Positions 30,272-60,931 of a stretch of DNA of 64,000 bases are shown one piece after another (the stretch's first letter is position 1; each line of letters starts with the position of its first letter). The stretch spans positions 3,840,001 through 3,904,000 of the forward strand of contig OY761158.1 in assembly GCA_963664405.1 (NCBI GenBank), written 5' to 3'. The notes beneath the pieces are model-generated. The model saw only the letters and a program-made list of their open reading frames with translations, had not been told where the DNA came from and did no database searches. This DNA comes from Thermoanaerobaculia bacterium. GTDB lineage: Bacteria; Acidobacteriota; Thermoanaerobaculia; Multivoradales; Multivoraceae. Made by a program: the position numbers and the translations under genes.

Positions 30272-31237
30272 ATGGGACGTGATCTCAGGCACATTCCGCA
30301 GGATCTTCTCGCTTCTTCGGGCCCTCTCGGCCCCTTGATCGAAGTGACGACACGAACCATGCAGGGGCGTCTTCTGCTTCGACCCTCGCCTGCGCTCAGA
30401 GAGATCATCATTGGCATCCTCGCCCGTTCTGCCCGGATGTATAAGGTGTCGGTGGTTGGCTTCGTTTATCTGTCAAACCACTTTCATCTCCTGCTCCGAA
30501 CCCGCGATGTGAGGGAGCTGTCGGCTTTCATGTGTTTTGTCAACGGGAATGTGGCCCGGGAGGCGGCGCGGTTGCATGGCTGGCCTGAGAAGTTTTGGTC
30601 ACGACGCTTCACTGCGATCTTGATCAGTAACGAGGAGGACAAACAACTTGAGAAGCTCCGTTATCTCTTCGCACAGGGCTCCAAGGAGGGTCTGGTTCAG
30701 CACCCCGAGGAATGGCCTGGCGCGAGCTCCGTCCAGGCGCAGATGAGAGGGGAGGGTCTTTCGGGAGTCTGGTTCGATAGGACCGCCGAGGGTGACGCTC
30801 GACGATGCGGACGGAAGCCGAGCAAGTACGAGTTTGCGTCACGGGAGACGTTGAAGCTCTCCCCCCCGCCCGTTTGGGACGGCATTGAGCCGAAGGAGGC
30901 CTGTCGAAGGGTTTGCGAGATGGTCTGCGAGGTCGTAGCCGAGACTAGCGCCGCTCTTCGAGAGCGGGGTGATAGACCTCTGGGGGTTCAAAGGATTCTG
31001 CGCCAGCATCCCCACTCGAGACCGATAGCTCTGAAGCGATCACCCGCGCCCCGTTTCCATGCCTCTAGCTGGGACGTCCGCAAGCGGCTAGAGGAAGCCT
31101 ACAAAGCCTTCCTTGTCGCCTACCGGCAGGCAGCGGCTCAGCTTCGGAGTGGCGAGCTGGGGGTCGAGTTTCCAGCGCAGTGTTTCCCTCCAGCCCTTCC
31201 TTCCGTCAGGGGTCCGACCCTCATCTCAGCTTCCTAG
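30272..31237 (+). CDS. HUH Y1 transposase, REP-associated tyrosine transposase (RAYT)-like
   Basis: VTTRT, LSNHFHLL (HUH), FWSRRF and LRYLFAQGSKEGLV...EEWPGASS (catalytic Tyr region). No tnpB partner and no long TIRs. Confidence 0.85.
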   Translation: MGRDLRHIPQDLLASSGPLGPLIEVTTRTMQGRLLLRPSPALREIIIGILARSARMYKVSVVGFVYLSNHFHLLLRTRDVRELSAFMCFVNGNVAREAARLHGWPEKFWSRRFTAILISNEEDKQLEKLRYLFAQGSKEGLVQHPEEWPGASSVQAQMRGEGLSGVWFDRTAEGDARRCGRKPSKYEFASRETLKLSPPPVWDGIEPKEACRRVCEMVCEVVAETSAALRERGDRPLGVQRILRQHPHSRPIALKRSPAPRFHASSWDVRKRLEEAYKAFLVAYRQAAAQLRSGELGVEFPAQCFPPALPSVRGPTLISAS

Positions 31238-38574: not shown

Positions 38575-39213
38575 ATGTCGAAACGAGCCAGCTTCCGGTC
38601 GGCGATCGCGGTCGCCTTAGTGCTTCTCGCGTCGCTCAGCTTTGCCGAGGTCGGTAAGAACACCGCCGTCCTGAATCCGAACCTCGCTTCCGAGGCGGAG
38701 CTCACGGCGCTCGATGGCGTTGACGCTTCAACCGCGCAAGCCATTATCGACGGCCGTCCTTTCCTCGATATCACCGAGCTCGAGGAGTTGCTCGCCGGGC
38801 GCCTCTCGGACGAGGTGCGCACAGAGCTCTATCAAGCGGTCTTCGTTCCCCTCGATCTGAATCGGGCTTCGAACGAATCGATCCTTCTGGTGCCGGGGGT
38901 GGGGCGGCGCATGGCGCACGAGTTCGACGAGTACCGCCCCTACGAGGGGATGGCGCGCTTTCGCCGAGAGATCGGCAAGTACGTCGATGAAGACGAGGTC
39001 GCCCGCCTCGAGCAATACGTCTTTGTTCCGATCAACCTCAACACCGCCTCGGAAGAGGACATCAAGACCATCCCTGGGGTCGGCAAGAGGATGACTCACG
39101 AATTCCTCGAGTACCGCCCCTATCGTAGCCTGGAGCAGTTCAGGCGCGAGATCGGCAAGTACGTCGATGAAGACGAGCTTGCTCGATTGGAACGCTTCGT
39201 CACCCTCGACTAG
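38575..39213 (+). CDS. Secreted helix-hairpin-helix repeat protein (ComEA-like)
   Basis: Signal peptide and three (L/I)N.AS..EL..(L/I).GVG/GVD units. The last two are a 60-aa tandem duplication with identical DNA at 38968-38997 and 39148-39177. Confidence 0.8.
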   Translation: MSKRASFRSAIAVALVLLASLSFAEVGKNTAVLNPNLASEAELTALDGVDASTAQAIIDGRPFLDITELEELLAGRLSDEVRTELYQAVFVPLDLNRASNESILLVPGVGRRMAHEFDEYRPYEGMARFRREIGKYVDEDEVARLEQYVFVPINLNTASEEDIKTIPGVGKRMTHEFLEYRPYRSLEQFRREIGKYVDEDELARLERFVTLD

Positions 39214-39221
39214 CGGCGGCG

Positions 39222-39617
39222 ATGCGACGCTTGCTGCGGATCATTCTGCTGATCGGAATGCTCGGGACCCTGGCTGAGCTCGTTCTGCTGGAGCATACCG
39301 AGGGCTACTGGCAGCGCCTTCCGCTGGTCCTGTTGATCTTGGGCCAGGCCGCGATCGTTCTCGAGGCGATGAGTGCCCGCCGTTGGCCTCGGCGGGCTCT
39401 GCAGGGTCTGATGGCGGCTTTTCTGGTCGGCGGAACGATCGGCCTCTACCAGCACTACCAGGTGAATCTGGAGTTCGAGCGCGAGATGTATTCCTCTCGG
39501 GCCGGGCTCGAGCTGGTCTGGGAGTCCCTCAAAGGCGCGACGCCCGCCCTCGCACCGGCTGCAATGATCTACCTGGGCCTACTCGGACTGCTCTACTGCC
39601 GAGCGCAGGCAGACTAG
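39222..39617 (+). CDS. Hypothetical 4-TM membrane protein
   Basis: 131 aa with four hydrophobic helices and ELVLLEH and P.LAP motifs; 8 nt downstream of the HhH gene. Confidence 0.75.
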   Translation: MRRLLRIILLIGMLGTLAELVLLEHTEGYWQRLPLVLLILGQAAIVLEAMSARRWPRRALQGLMAAFLVGGTIGLYQHYQVNLEFEREMYSSRAGLELVWESLKGATPALAPAAMIYLGLLGLLYCRAQAD

Positions 39618-39704
39618 CCCCAGAAAACGCGCCTTCGGCCCGTTTTCCGGCCCATCCCCGCCTGAGAACTACTCGCCTGTCCGAATTCTCGGACACACTC
39701 CTAG
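39614..39704. repeat. Repeat family 1, short divergent unit A0
   Basis: CTAG-CCCCAGAAAACG..CGTTTTCC ... TGTCCGA-ATTC-TCGGACA-CACTC-CTAG. It has the same two end types as unit A1 and shares the CTAG at 39701-39704. Confidence 0.7.
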
Positions 39705-39846
39705 CCTCCAGAAATGATTGCTATCATTTCCTCCGCTGGGCGCGCCCCGGCTAGTTGCCCTTTGGCGCCGAGGACGGCGCACTCAGGCGTTGCTTCCTAT
39801 TCGCTCCGGGAAACGGCGCTGGCCGAATACTCGGACACGCTCCTAG
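39701..39846. repeat. Repeat family 1, intact 146-bp unit A1 (empty IS1111 target)
   Basis: Aligns end to end with the reverse complement of 59108-59119 + 60596-60716, apart from scattered substitutions and a 14-nt indel. Confidence 0.92.
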
Positions 39847-40871
39847 CGGCGAGTGAAGAGCTCTTCGCAGCCTGTACCTTCGAGCACCCGGTCGGCACCG
39901 GCGCGATCCTCCGCCGAGAGCGCTCCGTAGGCCTGGCGAAGGGCGAGCAGACACTTGCCTTGATAGGGGAAGGGCTGCTGGACCCAGGGCTCGCCGTCGA
40001 TCGTGCACTCGACCCGCTCTGCGCCTTGTTCGAGGGTGTCGGCGTTGGCCAGGAGGAAGGGGACATAAGTCCGTCCGACCTCGACCAGAAGAGGGCCCAG
40101 TGTCTCGGCAACCTCGTTGCGCGAAAGCCAATCCCCAGCGCCGGGCTCCAGGCCGGAGAGGTCTTCCACCACGTCGACCCAGGCGATCACCCGCGGCGCC
40201 AACTCCAACGCCAAGGCGGCCGGTGTCGGGTCGAAGATCGCAAGTTGGGTGAGCTGGCCGTAAATGCCGAAGTCCGAGGCGCCAGGGCGCCCGCCCATGA
40301 GGAAGCGGTGGCCGGTGAGGTGGCGGTCGAGAAGGCCCAGGCAGCGAGCGTAGCTCGCCTCGATCACCGGCGAGGTGGTCGGGTTCGAGCCCGCAACCCA
40401 GAGCCTACCGACCTGGCGGTCGCGAGCCCATCGCGCGACCTCGGCGATCTCTTCTTCGGTCGCATCGATCCGCGCCCATCGCGGAAGGATGGCGACCGTC
40501 TTTTTGATGTCCGCTTCGTGAGTCCAGCGGTAGTGGAAGGTTGCCTTGTTGAGCCACTCGTCGGCGTAGTCCTCGAGGATGGCGTCGACCAGCGCGATCA
40601 CCGGATCCGGGGGGATCACACCGCGCCCCTCGCGCTCGGTCTCGAAGCGGCGGATCAACGGCGTCGAGTCGACGACGGCCTGAAGGCACCCCGCGGTGTC
40701 TGGCAGATAGAAAGTGGGCAGGAGTGCGACCTTCGGTTGTGGCAGGTCGTGGTCCTCCGGCGAGCCTTGCACGACCATCCGATAGGGGATCAGCCGGTAA
40801 CGCAGGAACGCCCGCATTTTGCGGGTGTAGGGCGATCCTGGGACACCGAGAAAGCTAATGGCCTCCGTCAC
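39843..40871 (-). CDS. Glutathione S-transferase family protein
   Basis: GSPYTRKMRAFLRY, LLP, DSTPLI, EDYADEW and FLMGGRPGASDF motifs. Start reassigned to GTG 40871. Confidence 0.85.
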   Translation of the reverse strand: MTEAISFLGVPGSPYTRKMRAFLRYRLIPYRMVVQGSPEDHDLPQPKVALLPTFYLPDTAGCLQAVVDSTPLIRRFETEREGRGVIPPDPVIALVDAILEDYADEWLNKATFHYRWTHEADIKKTVAILPRWARIDATEEEIAEVARWARDRQVGRLWVAGSNPTTSPVIEASYARCLGLLDRHLTGHRFLMGGRPGASDFGIYGQLTQLAIFDPTPAALALELAPRVIAWVDVVEDLSGLEPGAGDWLSRNEVAETLGPLLVEVGRTYVPFLLANADTLEQGAERVECTIDGEPWVQQPFPYQGKCLLALRQAYGALSAEDRAGADRVLEGTGCEELFTRR

Positions 40872-40878
40872 TTCGGGC

Positions 40879-41646
40879 TCACGCGACCAGGGCTCCGCCG
40901 TCGACGACCAGGGTTGTGCCGGTGCAGTAGGACGACGCGCTGGACGCCAGATAAACCGCGGCCCCGGCGATATCTTCGGGCTGGCCCCAGCGCCCAACAG
41001 GCATGTACTCCCGCCAATGCTGTCTCTTCTCCTCGGTGTCGAGGACCGCCTGCGAGAAGCGGGTCTCGACAACCCCGGGGGCGATCGCGTTGACCCGGAT
41101 TCCCTTGGGCCCGAGCTCACGGGCGAAGTTCTTGGTTACACTGATCACACCGGCCTTGGTCATGGCGTAGGTCGTCTCCAGTGCTTGCGGCCGCAGACCC
41201 CCGATCGAGGTGATATTGATGATCGAGCCGCCGCCGGACTTCTCGATCAGCGGCGCCGCCTGCTGGATCATGAGCATGTAACCGCGTAGGTTGACTTCGA
41301 TGGTCTTGTCGAAGGCCCGCATCGGAGTTCCCATGGCCTCGCCGAAGTAGGGGTTTGTGGCGGCGTTGTTGACGTGAATGTCGAGGCGACCCAGCTCAAC
41401 CTGGACCCGCTCGAAAAGAGCCCGGATCTGATCTTCCTTGCCACCGTGGCAGGCGATTGCGAGGGCGCGTCCGCCGCTCGACTCGATCGAACGGGCCACC
41501 GCATCGAGGGCGTCCTGGTTGCGGGAGGAGAGGACCACGGTCGCGCCGCGCTCGGCGAACGCGCGGGCAATCGCCTCGCCGATACCTCGACTCGCTCCGT
41601 TGATGGTCGCCACCAGGCCCTCGAGGCCGAAGTCGATTACTGGCAT
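40879..41646 (-). CDS. SDR family oxidoreductase
   Basis: GASRGIG, VNNAA, YAMTK (YxxxK), IRVNAIAPG and VDGG motifs; GGAGG Shine-Dalgarno. Confidence 0.95.
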   Translation of the reverse strand: MPVIDFGLEGLVATINGASRGIGEAIARAFAERGATVVLSSRNQDALDAVARSIESSGGRALAIACHGGKEDQIRALFERVQVELGRLDIHVNNAATNPYFGEAMGTPMRAFDKTIEVNLRGYMLMIQQAAPLIEKSGGGSIINITSIGGLRPQALETTYAMTKAGVISVTKNFARELGPKGIRVNAIAPGVVETRFSQAVLDTEEKRQHWREYMPVGRWGQPEDIAGAAVYLASSASSYCTGTTLVVDGGALVA

Positions 41647-59097: not shown

Positions 59098-59219
59098 TTT
59101 TCTTGTGCTAGGAGCGTGTATCTGGACTCCAATGTCAACAGGGGTGGGTCGGTCTTCTTGTTTTTGATAGAGGTTTCCTTGGTGTGTAATCACAGGCAGT
59201 ATGGAGGTCGATGGTGAGT

Positions 59220-59400
59220 CAAGACAGCAGACGTATCTCCGGCCTGTAGTGGGCGATTATTAGCGCCGGGCCATGATGAAGAAATGCGCGTGAGGGAGCC
59301 GAATCGTCCGAAAGGGCCTCGAAGGCCAACGCTCCTATCGGCTTTTCCCCCCACGCCAGTCTGACTGGAAACCATCAGAATTCTCTACTCGCGCTGTCGG
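59220..59400 (-). ncRNA. Putative bridge RNA / seekRNA of the IS1111 element (ends approximate)
   Basis: Stem GCGUGGGGGG..AGCCGA / UCGGCU.CCCUCACGC encloses an internal loop carrying UAGGAGCGU and UCGGAC (target halves). A second loop carries UUCAUCAU and AGAUA (element ends). Confidence 0.85.
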
Positions 59401-59466
59401 AGTGTTTGTGAGTGTTCAATTTGAAGTCTTCGGGTGCGTTGGGGTCCAGAGATCGAGGCCAAGGGC

Positions 59467-60507
59467 TCAGGCCGTGACTTGCCGTGGAGGCTGCAGCTGG
59501 AAGGAGGTCTCGTGGGTCCAGACCGCCCAGACAACGCGTGCGAGCTTGTTGGCGAGGGCAACGGCGGCCCGGTTCCGTCCCCGCGAGCTCTCGACTCTGA
59601 GGGCCCACTGTTCGAGCCTACCGGCGGGTCCCTTTCTCCTCGCCCAGCTGAGCACCGACCTGGCGCCATGAATGAGGAGAGTTCGTAAGTACGCGTCCCC
59701 GCGTTTGCTGATCCTGCCGAGCCACCGCCGAGCGCCACTGGAGTGTTCCCTGGGAGTCAGTCCGAGATAGCTGGCGAGATGCCGGCCGCTTTTGAAGCGG
59801 CGAATGTCTCCGATCCAAGCGACCATGGCTGTGGCCGTGAGTACGCCTACGCCCTTGATCGTCAGGAGTCGCTTCACGGCCTCGTCCTGGCGCGCGAGGG
59901 CTTGGATCTGTGCCTCGAGCTCTTGGATCTTCGTGGTCAGCTCGTCGATGTGGTCACAGATGCTTTCGAAAAAGGGTCGCAAGACGAGCGGGATCTCGGT
60001 ATCCGGATCCGCGAGCCAGACGCGGACGCGCGGCAGGACCTGGGCGCGTCCCTGGGGCAGAAAGAGCCCGAGCTCTCGTAGGTGCCCGCGCAGAGCATTG
60101 ATGTGGGCGGTGCGATCGTCCATGAACGACGAACGGATGCGATGGAGCGTGGTCATCGTCTGCTGCTCGAGCGATTTGACCGGTACGGGTAGGATGTCCT
60201 CGTTTCGATGCGCCTCGAGCATGCCCGTGGTATCCGTTCGATCCGATTTATTGCGCAACACATAGCGCCGGGTGAAATGCGGTGGCAGCAGGATCACCTC
60301 GTGGCCGAGACTCTGAATACGCCGGCCCCAGTAGTGCGCCGAACCGCAGGCTTCCATGAGGACGGTCGCGGGCTTGATCTGCGCGAAGAACCTGAGGAAT
60401 TTCGCCCTTCGCACGCGCTGCCTCTCGGCGACCTTACCCGGCTCGTAAGACACCGCGATCTCGAAGACATCCTTGGCGATATCGACTGCGATACGTGTAC
60501 TCTTCAT
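59467..60507 (-). CDS. IS110-family DEDD transposase/recombinase (346 aa)
   Basis: AVDIAK, MEACG, KSDRTD (DEDD RuvC-like) and GLTPREHSSG (catalytic Ser), ISKRGD, ALANKLAR. Start is ATG 60507 after a GGGAG Shine-Dalgarno. Confidence 0.97.
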   Translation of the reverse strand: MKSTRIAVDIAKDVFEIAVSYEPGKVAERQRVRRAKFLRFFAQIKPATVLMEACGSAHYWGRRIQSLGHEVILLPPHFTRRYVLRNKSDRTDTTGMLEAHRNEDILPVPVKSLEQQTMTTLHRIRSSFMDDRTAHINALRGHLRELGLFLPQGRAQVLPRVRVWLADPDTEIPLVLRPFFESICDHIDELTTKIQELEAQIQALARQDEAVKRLLTIKGVGVLTATAMVAWIGDIRRFKSGRHLASYLGLTPREHSSGARRWLGRISKRGDAYLRTLLIHGARSVLSWARRKGPAGRLEQWALRVESSRGRNRAAVALANKLARVVWAVWTHETSFQLQPPRQVTA

Positions 60508-60931
60508 CGTGGACTCCCTTTCTACGATCAACGTTTGCGACTTAGGTGACCCCTGGCACATAGATGCCGAAGTCACCGGGGAGTCCATTTCATCATCCGA
60601 GTATTCGTCCTGAGCCGTTTCCGTGAGCGAATAGGAAGCAACGCCCAAGTGCGCCGTCCTCGGCGCCAAGAGACAACTAGGCGGAGGAAATGATAGCCAT
60701 CATTTCTGGAGCCTAGGTTTTTTCGGTGCCAGCCCGTTCTCCATCCCGCTTCGGGTCCTGCCGCCGCGCTGTTCGCTGCGGCGTTCATTGCAGAGAGCCG
60801 GCGCCTAGAGCCTCGGAGTGCGCTAGCAGACGAGAGCTTCCTGAAGCACCCGTTCGTTGAATTGGAGCCAGCTCAGCTCCCGGTTCGAGTAGTAGGTAGA
60901 ATGGCCGAGATTTGAGCATCGAGGTGCGAGA

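Follow-up and report, generated by a model that had tools for sequence, protein, structure and literature searches.

Two repeat tails between convergent genes

The window, meaning the whole stretch of 64,000 nucleotides analysed here, corresponds to positions 3840001-3904000 of one 6.78-Mb contig, whose G+C content is 62.6%. Within it, the gap between two convergent genes (39614-39846) consists entirely of an R2 repeat followed by an R1 repeat, and the TAG stops of both genes lie in CTAG repeat ends. The features of this gap are:

39614-39617, plus strand: CTAG that opens R2; its TAG (39615-39617) is the stop of a 131-aa open frame at 39222-39617
39618-39688, plus strand: body of R2, holding the 5′ arm of a hairpin (39678-39684)
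39689-39703, plus strand: TCGGACACACTCCTA, R2's tail and an empty near-cognate site, with A for G at 39697
39704-39830, plus strand: body of R1, the inverted counterpart of the R1 unit at the flank of an insertion sequence (IS), 60597-60718
39831-39845, plus strand: exact empty copy of the probable cognate site, TCGGACACGCTCCTA, the tail of R1, 0 mismatches
39843-39845, minus strand: CTA, the TAG stop of a GST-like open frame at 39843-41120

When up to two mismatches were allowed and both strands searched, the window contained no matches to the exact sequence other than the 15-mers at 39831-39845 and 39689-39703; 0.21 would be expected by chance, and at least two occurred in 3 of 100 shuffles. 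Position 39697 is the sole difference between 39689-39703 and the exact 15-mer.

Both 15-mers are the conserved 3′ tails of adjacent REP/BIME-like units, R2 (ending at 39703) and R1 (ending at 39845). Units of both types open at CTAG and close in ...GAAT(A/T)C-TCGGACACGCTCCTA-G. With its tail, R2 is about 87 nt long. For R1, the copy beside the IS measures about 122 nt, and the one at 39704-39845 has 142 nt from tail to tail. The R1 unit at 60597-60718 aligned with the inverted segment 39700-39835 over 89 nt at 88% and over 37 nt at 95%. Across the genome, the units are arranged singly, as mosaics and in tandem arrays, and blastn returned more than 150 matches to the R1 unit, with some R1 copies 100% identical. 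The first seven bases of the R2 tail (39689-39695) form the 3′ arm of a 7-bp hairpin, TGTCCGA-ATTC-TCGGACA, with 39678-39684, and the R1 tail takes part in a stem of six positions, one of which does not pair. Hairpin-forming, extragenic, high in copy number and mosaic or tandem, R1 and R2 thus have the features of REP/BIME-like sequences, and are longer than the classical 20-40-nt REPs.

We also looked at proteins linked to REPs. The genome has 13 Y1_Tnp matches, and in the window a 321-aa open frame at 30272-31237 (plus strand) is weakly similar to REP-associated tyrosine transposases (RAYTs). It scored below the cut-offs (46.2 against 80 for NF047646, 22.4 against 23 for PF01797) and is not flanked by R1 or R2; its protein could be a mobiliser of the repeat family. 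Two other repeats lie in the window. A second small MITE-like family (1721-1750/1864-1888 and 48773-48808/48883-48913) has 21-31-nt terminal inverted repeats starting CTAGACCAGCGTTTCCAAAG, 113 and 74 nt apart, and its sequence is also found after a one-mismatch tail at genome position 6272405. The helix-hairpin-helix gene at 38575-39213 holds a 129-nt internal direct repeat (38893-39021 and 39073-39201, 72% identity) that resembles a duplicated HhH module; contig depth was high there in all four of the runs described below.

A search of the whole genome for the 15-mer gave the following counts, with expectations from an independent-base model:

0 mismatches: 64 found, all empty; 0.017 expected
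1 mismatch: 13 found; 0.77 expected
2 mismatches: 17 found; 16.3 expected
3 mismatches: 153 found; 212 expected

The 64 empty exact copies, against 0.017 expected, cannot be due to chance. Raw counts were clearly above expectation for the zero- and one-mismatch classes only, and since raw matches with two or three mismatches were at chance level, we counted only those in repeat context. A 66-nt profile of the tail context gave 147 nhmmer matches in the genome, among which the 15-mer was present with 0, 1, 2 or 3 mismatches in 64, 13, 9 and 8 cases, respectively (94 with at most three). All 64 exact and all 13 one-mismatch copies therefore lie in repeat tail context; six further nhmmer matches were left-end junctions of IS copies. 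The coincidence of tail and stop codon recurs: 13 of the 64 exact tails end an opposite-strand open frame of at least 150 codons, compared with 6.8% of random TAG triplets.

An insertion sequence that splits the tail

An IS, here called IS-A, occupies a further copy of the tail, 19.3-19.4 kb from the two 15-mers:

59109-59119, plus strand: TAGGAGCGTGT, the half of the occupied target that adjoins the right end
59120-60596, minus strand: IS-A, a 1477-bp IS1111-type IS, with two further near-identical copies in the genome
59124-59130, minus strand: sub-terminal inverted repeat GGAGTCC of the right end, 4 nt from the end
59133-59138, minus strand: right-end TTGACA, which is conserved between IS-A and its relatives IS-B and IS-C
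59467-60507, minus strand: transposase gene (tnp), 346 aa, matching PF01548, PF02371 and NF033542
60580-60586, minus strand: sub-terminal inverted repeat GGACTCC of the left end, 10 nt from the end
60587-60592, minus strand: TGAAAT in the left end, 17 nt from TTGACA after circle joining
60597-60718, plus strand: R1 unit on the left-end side, whose first four bases, CCGA (60597-60600), are the other half of the occupied target

The transposase matched PF01548 (E = 7.6e-11) and PF02371 (E = 2.8e-27), and scored 316.8 bits against NF033542, "IS110 family RNA-guided transposase" (cut-off 140). The IS1111 and IS110 groups are separated by transposase size and motif, by the downstream non-coding region and by sub-terminal repeats (PMC11187229, and the part of PMC11208160 that deals with these groups). 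IS-A has a transposase of 346 aa, within the 330-350 aa of the IS1111 group, and GLTPREHSSG in its translation corresponds to the GL-P----S(t)G motif. Its non-coding ends measure 89 nt 5′ and 346 nt 3′ of tnp, and its 7-bp sub-terminal repeats are at the lower limit of the 7-17 bp range for IS1111. The bridge-RNA IS110 group carries its RNA in the 5′ (left) non-coding end and has very short sub-terminal repeats or none; this arrangement was not found, in that the 89-nt 5′ end contains no match to the target and the structured RNA lies 3′ of tnp. By these sequence-level features, IS-A is classed in the IS1111 group of the IS110 family. TTGACA may be the -35 box of a promoter formed across the circle junction; a sigma-70 promoter scan of the IS returned 0 sites.

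The three genomic copies of IS-A are 99.6-100% identical. A sister element, IS-B, is also present in three copies (1439 bp, one of them truncated), with a protein 73% identical to that of IS-A and the same ends and target. IS-C is a 54% relative in the same genome; we searched for its left end and did not locate it, so IS-C contributes only one of the two guides described below, the T guide. All six left-end junctions (three of IS-A, two of IS-B and one of a left-end fragment) read ...TCGG|ATGATGAAATGGAC, and all six right-end junctions of IS-A and IS-B read GAGTCCAGAT|ACACGCTCCTAG. Thus, both insertion site and orientation are fixed. Two IS-B copies sit in neighbouring tails of one array, and a unit of the R2 type also flanks IS-A copy C.

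Two further junction regions are worth recording. At 5984577-5984924 of the same genome lies an isolated left-end fragment of an element like IS-A and IS-B. It includes the first 49 codons, at 75% identity, and retains its junction with a perfect half target and an R1 unit. Near 5489300, to the left of IS-B copy B1, a unit starts after TCGGCGGCTCCTAG rather than TCGGACACGCTCCTAG, a tail variant that is two bases shorter at the crossover region.

The initial annotation had read 39831-39845 as the reverse complement of a target reconstructed from the IS flanks, and hence as a natural pre-insertion allele. Both points hold: the 15-mer is the exact reverse complement of the joined plus-strand flanks, TAGGAGCGTGT followed by CCGA, and these flanks are the two halves of the same sequence. 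Comparing the empty with the occupied form placed the crossover at 39834|39835 or 39835|39836, because a single base, A39835, fits either side; its earlier placement at 39835 was right to within this one base. The same annotation had drawn attention to the presence of empty sites 20 kb from the IS. The sites are there, and their closeness means nothing, as the pair is only two of 77 such sites genome-wide (64 exact and 13 with one mismatch).

Could the 15-mers instead be footprints left by excision, or could the IS boundaries have been misplaced so that the motif belongs to the IS? One junction base (A) is indeed ambiguous. IS110-family elements excise precisely, which restores the target, so that "footprint" and "empty target" are one and the same sequence. 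Against this explanation, the 15-mer is always continuous with the repeat body and occurs 64 times against six IS copies, and the three IS-A copies part exactly at the ends given above where their flanks differ (copy C). We therefore consider it extremely unlikely, and treat the 15-mers as empty insertion sites.

The putative guide RNA region and its covariation with the flanks

The 3′ non-coding end of IS-A contains the following features:

59222-59381, minus strand: conserved structured part, like a seekRNA or bridge RNA, with a putative target-binding internal loop and a second domain
59329-59337, minus strand: T guide UAGGAGCGU, complementary to ACGCTCCTA, the right flank at +3 to +11 (equivalent to 39837-39845)
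59306-59311, minus strand: B guide UCGGAC, identical to the target at -4 to +2 (equivalent to 39831-39836)

Being identical to the target at -4 to +2, the B guide is complementary to the bottom strand, and together the 9-nt T guide and the 6-nt B guide tile the 15-mer exactly. The T guide lies 5′ of the B guide on the minus strand, downstream of tnp, which is the order seen in IS1111 seekRNAs. The earlier statement that 39689-39703 differs at one guide-paired position is correct, because A39697 (equivalent to G39839) faces C7 of the 9-nt guide at 59329-59337.

In the minimum free energy fold, an internal loop separated an outer stem from an inner GGCC...GGCC hairpin, and each side of this loop carried one of the two guides. 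A consensus fold of 17 sequences had the same architecture, with 13 of 32 pairs kept through two-sided changes, although the covariation term was small (-0.89 kcal/mol), and with the two loop segments unpaired and variable. IS-B keeps both guides despite a 27% difference in protein sequence. Scanned against Rfam (E up to 1), the segment 58900-60900 gave one chance lncRNA match and no bridge RNA or seekRNA family. The RNA from 59222-59381 is predicted to be made and used.

The second domain of the RNA contains a stretch, UUCAUCAU in IS-A, that is complementary to the left end of the IS. In two relatives, L001 and L010, this stretch seems to change together with left-end positions 7-8. It bears on the idea that R1 and R2 are MITE-like non-autonomous derivatives moved by an IS1111-type transposase, with the 15-mer as the end of the element. 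That idea would account for units that have the same tail or CTAG at either boundary, for their tandem arrays and for the R1 copies that are 100% identical. We find it very unlikely, however: the second-domain stretch matches the left end of the IS and not the R1 or R2 repeats, which have neither GGACTCC/GGAGTCC sub-terminal repeats nor any likeness to the IS ends. Moreover, the 64 tails outnumber the six IS copies, and the IS splits the tail rather than ending with it.

We propose instead that the repeat tail serves as the landing site of an IS1111-type IS within multi-copy intergenic repeats. The 3′ non-coding region of the IS would encode a structured RNA with a target-binding internal loop, in which the 9-nt guide UAGGAGCGU would pair with the top strand immediately to the right of the crossover and the 6-nt guide UCGGAC with the bottom strand across it. 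At TCGG|ACAC in the target, the DEDD transposase would then carry out recombination with the junction of the circular IS, always in the same orientation and creating no duplication. We observed the anatomy of the element, the census of tails, orientation-specific junctions, a conserved RNA structure and covariation between guides and flanks; the repeat tails are very probably the cognate target of an IS1111-type IS guided by its own 3′ RNA.

The covariation was measured among relatives from the same order, with each species represented by a single genome; 27 of 201 genomes, the present one included, matched at E ≤1e-40. Further loci came from named records, a single-protein search of which gave six, the nearest being in a Candidatus Marinacidobacterales MAG (57% identity). 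For the T guide, the score was the longest exact complement between the loop region and the element's own right flank; summed over 14 elements it reached 83, a value attained in 1 of 20000 label shuffles. For the B guide against the left flank, the sum over 11 elements was 48, attained in 4 of 20000 shuffles, with individual matches that were short (3-6 nt). The shuffles ignore relatedness; where related elements have a target in common, the cross-scores go up, and this makes it harder for the true pairings to stand out.

Read in a fixed register (+3 to +11), the 18 rows had nine Watson-Crick pairs of nine in three cases, eight in three, seven in four, six in two and five or fewer in six. The pairing register varies: a start at +1 suits L001, L002 and L009, and a start at +2 suits L013. 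The guides of L014 (4/9) and L019 (at most 3/9) match their own flanks in no register.

A metagenome scan with the right-end motif gave 20 loci, 19 of which had unrelated flanks and belong to other elements sharing the end motif. The metagenome contig L046 carries the guide UAGGAGCCU beside the right flank ACAGGCTCCTAG (match at 1713-1731 of the reverse-complemented locus). It thus has a single compensatory change in the guide, at +4, within the same target family; its tail ACAGGCTCCTAG is followed by an R2-like start (CCCC...), and three empty copies of this ACAGG tail variant are present in our genome.

These data also bear on whether it is mainly the protein that reads the REP-like hairpin TGTCCGA-ATTC-TCGGACA, with the matches in the 3′ non-coding region being incidental. 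The position of the crossover is compatible with such recognition, as it falls in the 3′ arm of the hairpin at the R2 tail and in the imperfect six-position stem at the R1 tail; L001 and L002 are likewise in a hairpin-like target, and the matches of the B guide are short. Yet covariation of guide and flank extends over elements whose targets are unrelated, as the shuffles show (1/20000 and 4/20000), and the single compensatory change in L046 argues against a reading of the hairpin mainly by the protein. In addition, IS-B keeps its guides while the rest of its non-coding region diverges, and in published experiments on IS1111 relatives the non-coding RNA was both required and reprogrammable (PMC11187229). 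Recognition mainly by the protein is thus very unlikely, and guidance by the 3′ RNA remains our preferred explanation.

Site choice and comparison with known systems

In this genome, the junctions found are in perfect tails only: five complete insertions and two half junctions lie in these, and none in the 13 one-mismatch tails. The difference in occupancy between perfect and one-mismatch tails gave Fisher p = 0.41 with five insertions and 0.29 with seven, and p = 0.08-0.18 when perfect tails were compared with all tails of one to three mismatches. As perfect tails make up 84% of the pool, the census has no power against the one-mismatch class. The count of occupied and empty copies by mismatch class that the initial annotation proposed places all junctions in perfect tails, with no significant preference over one-mismatch tails (p = 0.41).

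Relatives occupy imperfectly matched sites, with nine of the 18 rows at sites that have 6-8 of 9 Watson-Crick pairs (1-3 positions not Watson-Crick). One genome has a cluster of four copies of a relative (55% identity) in a 13-kb region (G200:C1:3283654-3296602). Of these, three occupy ACGAAT(T/G)GTTAG, with a guide that encodes A at the T/G position; the fourth was not found with this pattern, and that genome contains no empty copy of the motif. The mismatch there may stem from mutation after insertion. Because relatives use imperfect sites, the suggestion that 39689-39703 provides a natural one-mismatch control stays unproven. For IS621, part of the published account (PMC11208160) describes single mismatches as poorly tolerated, yet off-targets as typically carrying one or two. 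The G-to-A variant at 39697 may be a poorer site, and 39689-39703 is a reasonable candidate for a weaker target rather than a demonstrated negative control; 39831-39845 is probably a site usable in vivo.

We also looked for IS junctions at the two sites in four runs of Logan contigs, which break inside repeats and drop rare variants. Two of the runs, X19 and X20, hold 97% of the sampled words of the window and have long contigs that match it without difference, and so probably represent the same strain. Each has one 3711-nt contig that covers 39788-41100 uninterrupted, which means that 39835 is empty in both. At 39693, the other position named for this check, no contig bridges the site with unique sequence on both sides. 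Among the contig loose ends listed, none was an IS junction. Since the contigs break in repeats and lose rare variants, the result is silent on insertions in a subpopulation.

A further reading is that tails and IS guides are co-evolving, with the 13 one-mismatch tails, including 39689-39703, as partial escape alleles. It is suggested by the tail being a conserved module that adjoins a hairpin and doubles as a stop codon, by the guides shared between the diverged IS-A and IS-B, and by the guide of L046, which follows the ACAGG tail variant. We regard it as doubtful; if true, the system would document how an RNA-guided transposon has been retargeted in nature by single-base changes.

The comparators closest to IS-A are the IS1111 elements with a 3′ seekRNA, ISEc11, ISPa11, ISKpn4 and ISPst6 (Siddiquee et al. 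2024, PMC11187229). Like these, IS-A appears to encode a DEDD transposase in the 330-350 aa range that contains GL-P----SG, and it has sub-terminal repeats and a long downstream non-coding region. Further parallels are a pair of short guides, of which the one matching the top strand lies 5′ of the one matching the bottom strand, and insertion in a fixed orientation without duplication (PMC11187229). Diverged transposases that use one target are known there too, in ISKpn4 and ISPa25 (PMC11187229), as in IS-A and IS-B here. The host lineage and the target sequence of IS-A differ from theirs. In addition, the guides of IS-A, which is known from sequence alone, abut without overlap, whereas the seekRNA matches in PMC11187229 overlap.

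The bridge RNA of IS621 (Durrant et al. 2024, PMC11208160), as described in the part of that paper compared here, resembles the RNA region of IS-A in having an internal loop that pairs with both target strands and a second part whose sequence is complementary to an end of the element itself. IS621 also has a promoter across its joined ends, which for IS-A we only infer, and REP elements are among its natural targets (144 of 173 mapped insertions). By the same account, IS-A differs in carrying its RNA in the 3′ and not the 5′ non-coding end, in having only one ambiguous A in place of a conserved CT core dinucleotide, in its longer sub-terminal repeats, and in an end-matching stretch that lies in a more complex domain.

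Repeats of this kind are familiar targets. ISPa11, ISPpu9, ISPpu10, ISPsy8, ISRm19 and ISRm22 target REPs according to the relevant section of Tobes and Pareja 2006 (PMC1525189), and ISPpu9 is treated as a REP-targeting IS in part of a further paper (PMC12288879). As in IS-A, insertion of the elements in that section of PMC1525189 is site- and orientation-specific, into a multi-copy palindromic repeat most copies of which are empty. Unlike classical REPs, R2 and R1 are mosaic units of greater length (about 87 and 122-142 nt, respectively) with a common 15-16-nt tail ending in CTAG, and unlike the REP targets compared, this tail often coincides with a stop codon. The initial annotation had also cast the repeat family as a multi-copy intergenic "safe harbour". 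As a multi-copy landing pad it stands, but the term is overstated: this is known behaviour of the IS family and the site is not neutral DNA, as the convergent GST-like open frame has its stop codon in the last three bases of 39831-39845.

REP-like landing pads and RNA-guided target choice have thus already been published for this IS family (in the parts of PMC1525189 and PMC11208160 cited above), and IS-A with its repeat tails is an ordinary example of known behaviour. What it adds is a fully mapped natural IS1111-type RNA-guided transposon outside the usual proteobacterial models, together with its empty targets, a genome-wide census of them and a natural compensatory change in a guide. It can be used for annotation, and as a guide-target pair for working out the mismatch rules of IS1111-type recombinases.
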